Source: an uncultured archaeon (GTDB taxonomy: Archaea; Asgardarchaeota; Lokiarchaeia; Sigyniarchaeales; SOKP01). Taken from it: a stretch of DNA of 64,000 nt. Below are positions 29,905 through 51,645 of this stretch, one piece after another. Made by a program: the position numbers and the translations under genes. Below the pieces are notes generated by a model, which saw only the letters and a program-made list of their open reading frames with translations, did no database searches and had not been told where the DNA came from. The stretch's first letter is position 1; each line of letters begins with the position of its first letter. The stretch spans positions 51,639-115,638 of the forward strand of contig CAYUTF010000002.1 in NCBI GenBank assembly GCA_964447495.1, given 5' to 3'.

Positions 29905-31692
29905 TTATCCTTCTTTTTCAATATATTCTAAATTTTCTAAAAGAGATCTTAACTTTAAGGCATTTGCACCTCCAGATACCTGTATATTAACTATTGAATC
30001 CTCATCCGTACCAGTAACATTGGTTTCGATTAATACCTTTTCTGCTCGTATCTGTTTTGTTTGCCGTTTACTTAATGCTTCTTTTAAGGGTTGATCCAAA
30101 TTTGGAAATTCAGCAGCAATTTCTACCCAGACTTCTTTTTGATGAGAATATTTAAACGTAAAATCTGAGACTGTTTGTTTATAAAGTTCTTGATCGCACC
30201 AATTAATTAGATAGGCTCTATTAGGAAATTCAAGATCATCAATTAAATTATTCCTAATTTCAGATAAACTTTTAATATCTCCATTCTTCACAGCGATATC
30301 TATTTTTCTAGCTAATTTTGAATACTTTTTTGCTTTTACTGATTTTATAAAAGAGATCAGATCAAATTTAACTATTAAATCGTTCATTGCATAATTATCG
30401 AGCATTTTTAAATCATTTACTTCTGGAGTTCCATCACGAAAACGAGTAGCTATTTCATAACAGGGCTTTCGATTAATATATCGTTTCTTAATTTCTTCTA
30501 AAACATGTTTAGTAAACTCATATTTATTACCCCAGAATGGTGCTTTCTCCAATTCTCGTGATGTATATTTCACGCGATGGGATATTATGTAAGGTGCAAT
30601 TGTATTTACAATATTAATATCAACTATATTCAAGTTTAATAACCATGCTAAAGCTTTAGAATATCTAAGAAGATCTTTTGCTACTCTTACACTTAGAATG
30701 GAATCAATTTTATTGCAAACGCTTTGTTCGGTGTTGAAATGACATCCAGAACACAATCCAGAACTGGGTTTGATATTTTCAGAATTCCCCTTATCTACGC
30801 GAGCACATAAAGTATATTCTCTTATTATTGCATGAATATAATTATTCACTTCTGTTTCGAATTTCATCTTGTTTACATGGTACCAAATTTCCATGAGACC
30901 ATCAATATGTAAGATTTTAGGTACTTCAATCAATTCATCATATCCAGAATATTTTTCGTCCTTTCCTGTAAGTATTAATGATAAATCATTACTTGTTGGC
31001 ATTGAGATAGGAACTGATATTCCAAAACGATCTAGAAACGGTTGAGACAGTTTTCGAATAATTTGGAAATCAAATTAAATTTCGAATGTCCCAACATCTT
31101 GTGGATTTATAGTAGCATAAAGCGTGTATTTTTCTATAGTATTAATGGCATCGTAATATTTTACTTTTCCTTCAGCTAATAAGGATAAAAGAATATCTTG
31201 GGCATATGGTGTCAATCTGTTGACCTCATCGATAATTTTCCAAAATCCAGTTACAAATTGCCTCCAAACGACTACTTCTTCCCCGTCTTTCATTAACTTT
31301 CCTAATTTTAAAGTCCCTGTAAGTTTTTCTTCTGTGAGTTGCGGTTAGCCGTTAAACGCTGAGAGCGATTAACTATGACCCCTTACAATGGAACTTTCAA
31401 TTTGATCCAATGTCATACCAGTGAACATCCTACCTAATAGTTTAACTAAAGTAGTTTTACCCCCACCATGTCCTCCAACTAATAACATAGCAGAGTTTGG
31501 TACTAGCGCATTTAAAACACACATAGATAAAATTTCAGGCAATGTATTTGTTATAAGCTTCTTCTTATCCTCATTAAAATATTTAACTTCCAAATTTTTA
31601 GAATGAACAAATAATTGATTTGCTTGGATGAGGTTAATAGTGTTCCATACTTTTTTTCTTAATGATTCTTCTTCTCCTAATATATTTGACAT
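29905..31692 (-). CDS. MoxR-like AAA+ ATPase, three exons (31692-31375, 31344-31081, 31050-29905), 575 aa after splicing
   Basis: Walker A GGHGGGKT, Walker B IIDEVNR, sensor NPQDVGTFE|LSQPFLDRF; the three track ORFs are in one frame and separated only by two 30-nt inserts. Confidence 0.9.
31051..31080 (-). other. Putative BHB mRNA intron 2 (30 nt)
   Basis: mRNA GGGACA UUCG AA|A UU UAAUUUG auuuc CAAAUUA UU CGAA AA|C UGUCUC: 6-bp outer helix, 4-bp central helix, two 3-nt bulges; in-frame UAA inside. Confidence 0.88.
31345..31374 (-). other. Putative BHB mRNA intron 1 (30 nt)
   Basis: mRNA GGUC AU|A GUUAA U CGC ucuca GCG U UUAAC GGCU AA|C: 4-bp central helix, 3-nt bulges, inner stem; two in-frame UAA. 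Confidence 0.85.
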
Positions 31693-31805
31693 AAAGATTA
31701 TCTTTCAAAGATTTTTATTATTATTTTAATTATGGTTCTATAGTATTTATAAAATAGTATTACAAAATTAATAGAGAAGGGAGAATCAATTTAGTTATAA
31801 AACAA

Positions 31806-49480: not shown

Positions 49481-49580
49481 GGGGCTGTGGATTAGTGGAA
49501 GATCGTTCGCTTGGCATGCGAAAGTTAAGGCACTTTTACCTAACCGTAAGAGGCCGGGGGTTCAATTCCCCCCAGCTCCA
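49481..49580 (+). tRNA. tRNA-Ala(GGC) with a 28-nt intron at 49523-49550
   Basis: Acceptor GGGGCTG/CAGCTCC with G3:U70; D stem GATT/GATC; anticodon arm TTCGC-TTGGCAT-GCGAA; T arm GGGGG-TTCAATT-CCCCC. Confidence 0.95.
49523..49550 (+). other. BHB tRNA intron at position 43/44
   Basis: UGCG AA|A GUUA...UAAC CGUA AG|A; removal gives a canonical AGGCC variable loop. Confidence 0.88.
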
Positions 49581-51384: not shown

Positions 51385-51645
51385 ATGACTAGTTTGGATG
51401 AAAACGATTTTTTATATAGATTATATGAAGTTGTTCATAAACTTTCTATAATAGCATAAACAACAATAGATGAATATTATAATATTAGAGAATTAAATAT
51501 TACCATTGAAAAAGAGGATGCTTCCTCATTGGGCAAAGAAGACTTAAACGAGAAATTAAAGAGATCCGCAAGTAAGGGATATATTAACGCTTGTTATGTT
51601 TTTAGAGGGCTTATTGAATATTATAAAAATATAAAGAAAAAATAG
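51385..51645 (+). pseudogene. Disrupted small ORF
   Basis: GAGGTGA SD at 51373, ATG at 51385, stop after 24 codons; coding-like sequence resumes in another frame to ~51645. Confidence 0.4.

Follow-up and report, generated by a model that had tools for sequence, protein, structure and literature searches.

The window analysed here is a stretch of 64,000 nucleotides (nt) from the genome of an uncultured, probably Asgard archaeon (assembly GCA_964447495.1, called G000 in the comparisons below), covering positions 51,639 to 115,638 of contig CAYUTF010000002.1. On its minus strand, at 29905..31692, lies a gene for a MoxR-like AAA+ ATPase that is split by two inserts of 30 nt. Three open reading frames (ORFs) in a single shared frame (31704..31369, 31344..31075 and 31074..29905) make up the gene, with an ATG at 31692 and the terminal TAA at 29907-29905. 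When stops are read as X, the frame extends over 596 positions and is interrupted by TAA at codons 108, 116 and 206; with the inserts taken out, 106+88+381 = 575 codons are left. All parts of the gene are on the minus strand. Exon 1 (31375..31692, codons 1-106) includes the Walker A motif (GGHGGGKT) and ends in VRGH, exon 2 (31081..31344, 88 codons) includes Walker B (DEVNR) and ends in GTFE, and exon 3 (29905..31050, 381 codons and TAA) begins with LSQPFLDRF. Both inserts start on a codon boundary and are in phase 0. The first, here called intron 1 (31345..31374), contains two in-frame TAA codons and a hairpin of 5+4 base pairs (bp); the second, intron 2 (31051..31080), has an in-frame TAA as its second codon and a hairpin of 7 bp. 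A first-pass annotation, made from the sequence alone, had described these ORFs, the inserts and the 575-residue product, and every coordinate that it gave was correct.

The Pfam profile AAA_5 matches the protein at 32 bits, above its cut-off of 22, and AAA_3 matches the read-through protein at 18.2 bits, below its cut-off of 27; most homologues are assigned both AAA_5 and AAA_3 in the precomputed Pfam assignments (among the matches listed). Among 8000 scored candidates there are 810 relatives at E ≤ 0.001, and the best relative with a solved structure is 2r44_A (E 2e-4). The best 120 of the 810 are 565-584 residues long. Their source names are MoxR-like or AAA ATPases from Lokiarchaeota, Promethearchaeota, Thor-, Hermod- and Hodarchaeota, which fits the first-pass suggestion of a probable Asgard host.

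The boundaries of the inserts are fixed by the protein. In an alignment with 11 homologues (574-575 residues, 71-85% identical), all 11 have gaps over exactly the two stretches of 10 residues, and the flanking motifs, RGH|PQLTEEK and GTFE|LSQPFLDRF, are invariant in all 12 rows. None of the 11 has the 10 extra residues at either position, and the limits proposed in the first-pass annotation are thereby confirmed.

Distribution of the inserts and selection on their host genes

The gene was searched through whole genomes with stops read through, and was matched in 29 of 42 genomes of the genus and 124 of 161 genomes of the class. Internal stops are confined to G000, to four other genomes (G017, G041, G042 and G085) and to a second copy in G138 that is truncated; every other full-length match of the class is free of them. 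By translation, each of the four genomes has one single 30-nt insert. The site of intron 1 is occupied in G017 and that of intron 2 in G041 (with TAA) and G042 (with TGA), while G085, a member of another genus, has its insert at a third site within Walker A, between GGHGGGK and TTLVKLL (intron 3 below). Metagenomes yielded 25 loci, from which the 11 with at least 60% identity were inspected and the 14 at 44-47% were left out; intron 2 is present in 4 of the 11 (L045, L046, L047 and L066).

Removal of the inserts by script left no stop in any of the nine intron-bearing genes (0 stops in 9/9). The ratio of non-synonymous to synonymous divergence (dN/dS) is low in each pair compared: 0.093 for G041 and L045 at a synonymous divergence (dS) of 0.20 and 0.045 for L046 and L047 at a dS of 1.36, all four genes having intron 2, and 0.049 for G000 and the intronless G046 at a dS of 1.92. 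The additional copy in G138 (L044, G138:C132:24569-25153, minus strand), situated 2.7 kb from an intact ATPase gene, is by contrast a genuine pseudogene: it is truncated, has changes in invariant residues and contains a point stop. Judged from these sequence comparisons, the inserts are not a form of gene decay.

A maximum-likelihood tree of 40 proteins places G000 in a clade with 100/100 support together with G046 and the five closest bearers of intron 2. Because this fully supported clade unites G000, the intronless G046 and the five bearers, intron 2 was probably present in the ancestor of the clade and then lost precisely in G046. G042, with intron 2, and G017, with intron 1, lie in other clades, surrounded by genes without introns. 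The introns may be old, with many losses, or may have spread laterally. Partial orthologue matches were also inspected for introns whose length is not a multiple of three, and all of them end at breaks in the assembly: the matches in G147, G121, G137 and G113 stop at contig ends, and that in G073 stops at a run of N.

Although highly conserved elsewhere, the ATPase was not matched in 13 of the 42 genomes of the genus, several of which are 99-100% complete; part of the genus can apparently do without it.

Bulge-helix-bulge structure of the inserts

Each insert can be drawn with its flanks as a bulge-helix-bulge (BHB), the motif that the splicing endonuclease of archaea recognises in precursors of transfer RNA (tRNA). 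The register scored was the canonical one, which gives the first two bases of the upstream bulge to the exon and the first two of the downstream bulge to the intron. In BHB 1 (31343..31381, minus strand) the central helix pairs 31380-31377 with 31350-31347 (4 pairs, 2 of them G-U), and the bulges are 31376-31374 and 31346-31344; the inner helix of 5+4 bp is good and the outer helix is reduced to 1 bp. BHB 2 (31041..31095, minus strand) has a central helix of 31086-31083 with 31056-31053, bulges at 31082-31080 and 31052-31050, and an outer exon-exon helix of 9 bp (31095-31087 with 31049-31041). Its inner helix begins only past two U-U mismatches, and its minimum-energy fold extends the palindromic central helix to 6 bp.

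With the register set by protein alignment, the cut positions of both inserts lie between the second and third bases of the 3-nt bulges, and all four central pairs are present in every one of the 10 inserts of the family. Among 7,596,682 random 30-nt placements in this genome, a fraction of 5.2e-4 attain a 4-bp central helix with a flanking helix of at least 5 bp. Chance is a poor explanation, since such geometry occurs twice here, at sites set independently by the protein alignment. The first-pass annotation was thus right about the register, the 4-bp central helix and the position of the cuts, and overstated the form of the motif, which in this genome is relaxed.

The seven sequences of intron 2 align without gaps and allow the pairing to be followed through divergence. 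In the BHB register 92.9% of cells are paired, as against 29-57% for shifted partners, and three pairs are altered on both sides. In one of these, which belongs to the central helix, a G-to-A change in the intron matches a synonymous C-to-U change in the exon. The covariation score was reached by 1 of 500 shuffles, and the fold of intron 2 in G000 has z-scores of -3.8 and -4.2. The motif of intron 2 is fully canonical in G042, L046, L047 and L066, where in the BHB register no unpaired base separates inner helix and bulge. The hairpin loop shows 0.59 differences per site and the rest of the intron 0.18, compared with 0.63-0.75 at synonymous exon sites in the more diverged pairs; the intron RNA itself is therefore under constraint. 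The two sequences of intron 1 are alike at 24 of 30 bases and fit the register, as does the single sequence of intron 3.

Two further features of these sequences can be noted. The 9-bp outer helix of BHB 2 (31041-31049 and 31087-31095) is formed wholly by codons, those of the conserved residues VGT and LSQ on either side of the intron, and their complementarity is largely present also in intronless orthologues. Intron 1 (31345-31374) and the Walker A insert of G085 (L043) have two words in common, one of 7 and one of 6 bases, in a different order, which could be due to chance or to common descent.

RNA evidence, splicing enzymes and tRNA introns

Two independent DNA sequencing runs (X3 and X4) and two RNA runs (X21 and X23) were compared with the gene. 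Intron 1 is present without differences in DNA contigs of both X3 (31302-31563) and X4 (31314-31509). RNA contigs cover 31080-31191 and 31262-31373 in X21 and 31127-31262 in X23, all within 31080-31373; the lack of cover over the rest of the gene carries no weight as evidence. The X21 cover comes from one metatranscriptome contig of 224 nt that is identical to the window but joined out of order, running on the plus strand from 31262 to 31373 and then from 31080 to 31191. On the strand of the gene, this places the first base of intron 1 directly after the last base of exon 2 (31081 to 31374), with an ambiguity of one base and no extra letters. This back-join has its ends, give or take one base, at the 5' splice sites predicted for the two introns; neither 3' site is in view. 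The join points to cleavage and ligation at both 5' sites in the RNA library, and it places the cut of intron 2 in the canonical rather than the minimum-energy register. The product is a candidate circular RNA of 294 nt consisting of intron 1 and exon 2 (31081..31374, minus strand). No join of exon to exon, of the kind proposed as a check in the first-pass annotation, was seen in the two RNA runs. A long-range BHB between the two 5' sites was considered as the origin of the circle and rejected, as its central helix cannot pair. A DNA joint in X3 that skips 1708 bases, with 103 letters in between, was taken as unrelated; its shorter side is 20 letters and its pieces have several mismatches.

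The genome (3.81 Mb in 223 contigs, 98.4% complete, 3.75% contamination) encodes the enzymes that would be needed, with two matches to the endonuclease family PF01974 and one to the RtcB family PF01139, all above cut-off. The putative catalytic subunit, EndA alpha (201 residues), has as its closest relative chain 3p1z_B, which we take to be the catalytic subunit of the Aeropyrum pernix endonuclease; Tyr, His and Lys are kept, and a loop of EndA alpha aligns with the loop of the Aeropyrum enzyme. EndA beta (205 residues) is without the catalytic His. Asgard archaea are described, in the part of PMC5829648 that deals with them, as having an (alpha-beta)2 EndA with an L1 loop, and loop inserts of this kind are linked there to cleavage of relaxed BHB motifs.

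The only Rfam match in the window is a tRNA of 100 nt at 49481-49580 on the plus strand. Its sequence corresponds to tRNA-Ala(GGC), and a non-canonical intron of 28 nt (49523-49550) is predicted after position 43; ARAGORN without intron mode did not detect this tRNA. This predicted intron and intron 1 of the ATPase gene have the same first six bases, the same first bulge and the same start of the inner helix. There are 53 tRNA matches in the genome, 12 of them 93-150 nt long. ARAGORN in intron mode gave noisy output over the whole genome, and tRNA introns were instead predicted by a heuristic, in which BHB-guided removal was followed by ARAGORN. The introns so predicted are 25-31 nt long, at non-canonical positions, with bulges that begin with A and mostly without an outer helix. 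Given tRNA introns of like size and shape, the two mRNA introns fall in a class that the enzyme must already handle.

Interpretation and relation to known introns

The best explanation of these observations is a functional gene for a MoxR-like AAA+ ATPase that carries two 30-nt archaeal BHB introns and is spliced by EndA and RtcB, a reading whose probability we put at a little under nine in ten. In the transcript, the end of the upstream exon would pair with the 3' part of the intron to give the 4-bp helix flanked by two 3-nt bulges, and the heteromeric endonuclease, with a catalytic alpha and a structural beta subunit, would cut after the second base of each bulge. EndA leaves 5'-hydroxyl and 2',3'-cyclic phosphate ends, and RtcB joins such ends. 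RtcB would thus ligate the exons, and released pieces might also be circularised. The circle of intron 1 and exon 2 could arise where both 5' sites had been cut and the weaker 3' site of intron 1, with its weak outer helix, had not. EndA and RtcB are presumably the enzymes that act, and both 3' sites are presumably cut. Since dN/dS is 0.045-0.09 in intron-bearing genes, we infer that ligation of the exons yields an mRNA that can be translated. The removal of tRNA-type introns by EndA and RtcB, as first proposed from the sequence, is supported by the precise lack of the inserts in orthologues, by their retention under selection, by the covariation in intron 2, by the back-join and by the presence of the enzyme genes.

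Several points weigh against this reading. Neither motif is canonical in G000, the flanking helices being relaxed, and minimum-energy folds often take a neighbouring register for the AU-rich central helix. The fold of intron 1 is weak (z-scores of -1.2 and -2.5 here, -0.6 and -0.9 in G017), and one of its inner pairs is broken in G017. Covariation was assessed on intron 2, intron 1 being represented by two sequences and intron 3 by one. All ten inserts are exactly 30 nt long and compatible with phase 0, and splicing requires neither. The back-join was seen in a single contig of depth 2.5, from one library of RNA, a kind of library in which DNA may also occur. It is the sole junction seen and still holds intron 1, so that productive splicing is deduced from selection; no RNA contig crosses an exon-exon junction in X21 or X23, whose cover lies within 31080-31373. 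Finally, when the genome was scanned for BHB elements that, once removed, would fuse open frames of at least 50 codons, in-phase candidates were not in excess over out-of-phase candidates at any stringency. With a helix sum of at least 8 and a length of 26-35 nt there were 47 in phase and 44 out of phase; with the size class of 25-32 nt, bulges beginning with A and no start codon there were 21 compared with 26.5.

No further split gene was found in this genome by the BHB scan, by inspection of ORF pairs or by Pfam searches on four candidates, although the scan leaves room for introns with short exons or broken helices. The scan that the first-pass annotation had called for therefore added no second case. 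Among 528 same-frame ORF pairs there was a candidate of at most 45 nt in 46, and by eye only the two MoxR sites among these had neither a start codon nor a ribosome-binding site. The four candidates (C131, C19, C7 and C9) were rejected, as no Pfam domain is split in them: two of their downstream ORFs have a Pfam domain from profile position 1 and look like gene boundaries, and the remaining ORFs have no Pfam match or an internal one. The gene cbf5 (TruB_N) was matched in 159 of the 161 genomes of the class, and no internal stop was seen in the rows listed.

It might be supposed that the endonuclease cuts the inserts mainly to destroy or divert the transcript, as negative control or for the sake of a circular RNA, and that little mature mRNA is made. 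The sole RNA junction is indeed the circle of intron 1 and exon 2, a dead end for mRNA, and the 3' side of intron 1 is weak. The strong purifying selection in intron-bearing lineages requires a protein, however, and circles would be expected to outlast linear mRNA, so that one circle says little about yield. Diversion as the main role of the cuts is improbable.

A recent pseudogene, in which two hairpin insertions of DNA (e.g., miniature mobile elements) broke the frame and the likeness to a BHB is incidental, would account for the in-frame stops, the hairpins, the patchy species distribution and the lack of another split gene in the genome. It would not account for the retention of the same inserts across saturated synonymous divergence with low dN/dS and with no other stop or frameshift in nine of nine genes, for the covariation of helices that pair exon with intron, for the precise loss of intron 2 in G046, or for the RNA back-join exactly at the boundaries, and the decayed copy in G138 looks quite different. 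This reading is strongly disfavoured.

If the inserts stayed in the mRNA, the ribosome would have to bypass 30 nt or read through the stops. All inserts are 30 nt long, in phase 0 and folded as hairpins, and in all seven sequences of intron 2 a stop comes soon after the beginning of the intron, features that may recall a bypass signal such as that of phage T4 gene 60. At neither insert, however, is there an in-frame match of take-off and landing codons (intron 2 has a GAA towards its end, but in another frame), and TGA occurs among the stops as well as TAA. If the stops were read through, 10 residues would be added within the Walker A motif of G085 and between invariant motifs that are uninterrupted in orthologues. 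The back-join also points to RNA that has been cut and joined at the boundaries, and both forms of this explanation are very unlikely. An assembly artefact or strain chimera is scarcely credible, despite the 223 contigs, the 3.75% contamination and the fact that the contigs of X3 and X4 do not reach insert 2, since insert 1 recurs without differences in those two further DNA runs and insert 2 occurs in six other assemblies of relatives, as variants that keep the structure.

The mechanism proposed for the ATPase gene, splicing of a BHB intron by the tRNA machinery, is a known one; what is new is the lineage, the gene, the presence of more than one intron per gene and the exon-bearing circle. 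According to PMC7714728, the sole BHB intron reported in an archaeal coding sequence as of 2020 was that of crenarchaeal cbf5, in addition to an intron in a Haloferax 5' untranslated region. Full-text literature searches, in which supplementary files were outside the scope, returned no earlier report of BHB introns in Asgard mRNA or of an archaeal mRNA with more than one. The cbf5 intron of Crenarchaeota (PMC2738675) is likewise a tRNA-type intron within a coding sequence that is handled by a two-subunit enzyme and has been gained and lost among species. The present case differs in phylum (probable Asgard), in gene (an AAA+ ATPase), in having two introns per gene and three sites in the family, and in the uniform size of 30 nt and the exon-containing circle, both of which are new.

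There is a parallel in structure with the non-canonical tRNA introns, whose relaxed BHB forms (HBh', hBH) and (alpha-beta)2 EndA with L1 loop, in the account given in PMC5829648, show the same motif geometry, relaxed helices and enzyme type. Here, by contrast, the substrate is an mRNA, and the exon halves of the helix are codons of conserved residues. An mRNA is likewise processed by the tRNA splicing endonuclease, with an effect on expression, in the case of HVO_1309 of Haloferax volcanii; that intron is placed by PMC7714728 in the untranslated leader, where it leaves the reading frame intact. Circular RNAs are also formed by BHB processing in archaea, for example from rRNA intermediates and excised introns (PMC12918454, PMC7758197). 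The back-join has a form that might be expected of endonuclease ends joined by RtcB; the circle here would consist of a coding exon and an uncut intron.

This locus provides a second gene family with BHB introns in its coding sequence, in the lineage nearest to eukaryotes. With three sites that vary in presence and absence among species, together with RNA evidence of cutting and joining, the gain, loss and processing of protein-independent mRNA introns become testable. Annotation pipelines will label such genes as pseudogenes or as three separate ORFs.

A link to the origin of introns and to HAC1-like regulation, drawn in the first-pass annotation, is speculation. The mRNAs of HAC1 and XBP1 undergo unconventional cytoplasmic splicing by IRE1 and a tRNA ligase. 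The resemblance would lie in a short mRNA intron removed without the spliceosome, with exons joined by a tRNA ligase; the endonuclease and the RNA motif differ, and there is no sign of regulated splicing here. It is conceivable, if rather doubtful, that in this group of Asgard archaea the 30-nt mini-introns belong to one mobile pool common to tRNA genes and at least one mRNA. Such introns would insert in phase into coding sequence where motifs are highly conserved, would pass between species or be lost precisely, and would be excised by the enzymes of tRNA splicing, with exon-bearing circles as by-products. If so, expression of the ATPase would depend on the activity of EndA and RtcB, in a manner like that of HAC1 and XBP1.

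A last observation concerns the tRNA genes of G000. About 19 of the tRNA matches lie within 13 kb of a single contig (C80:11-13035), a density unusual for an archaeal chromosome, and this contig could derive from a mobile element or a virus, or be contamination.

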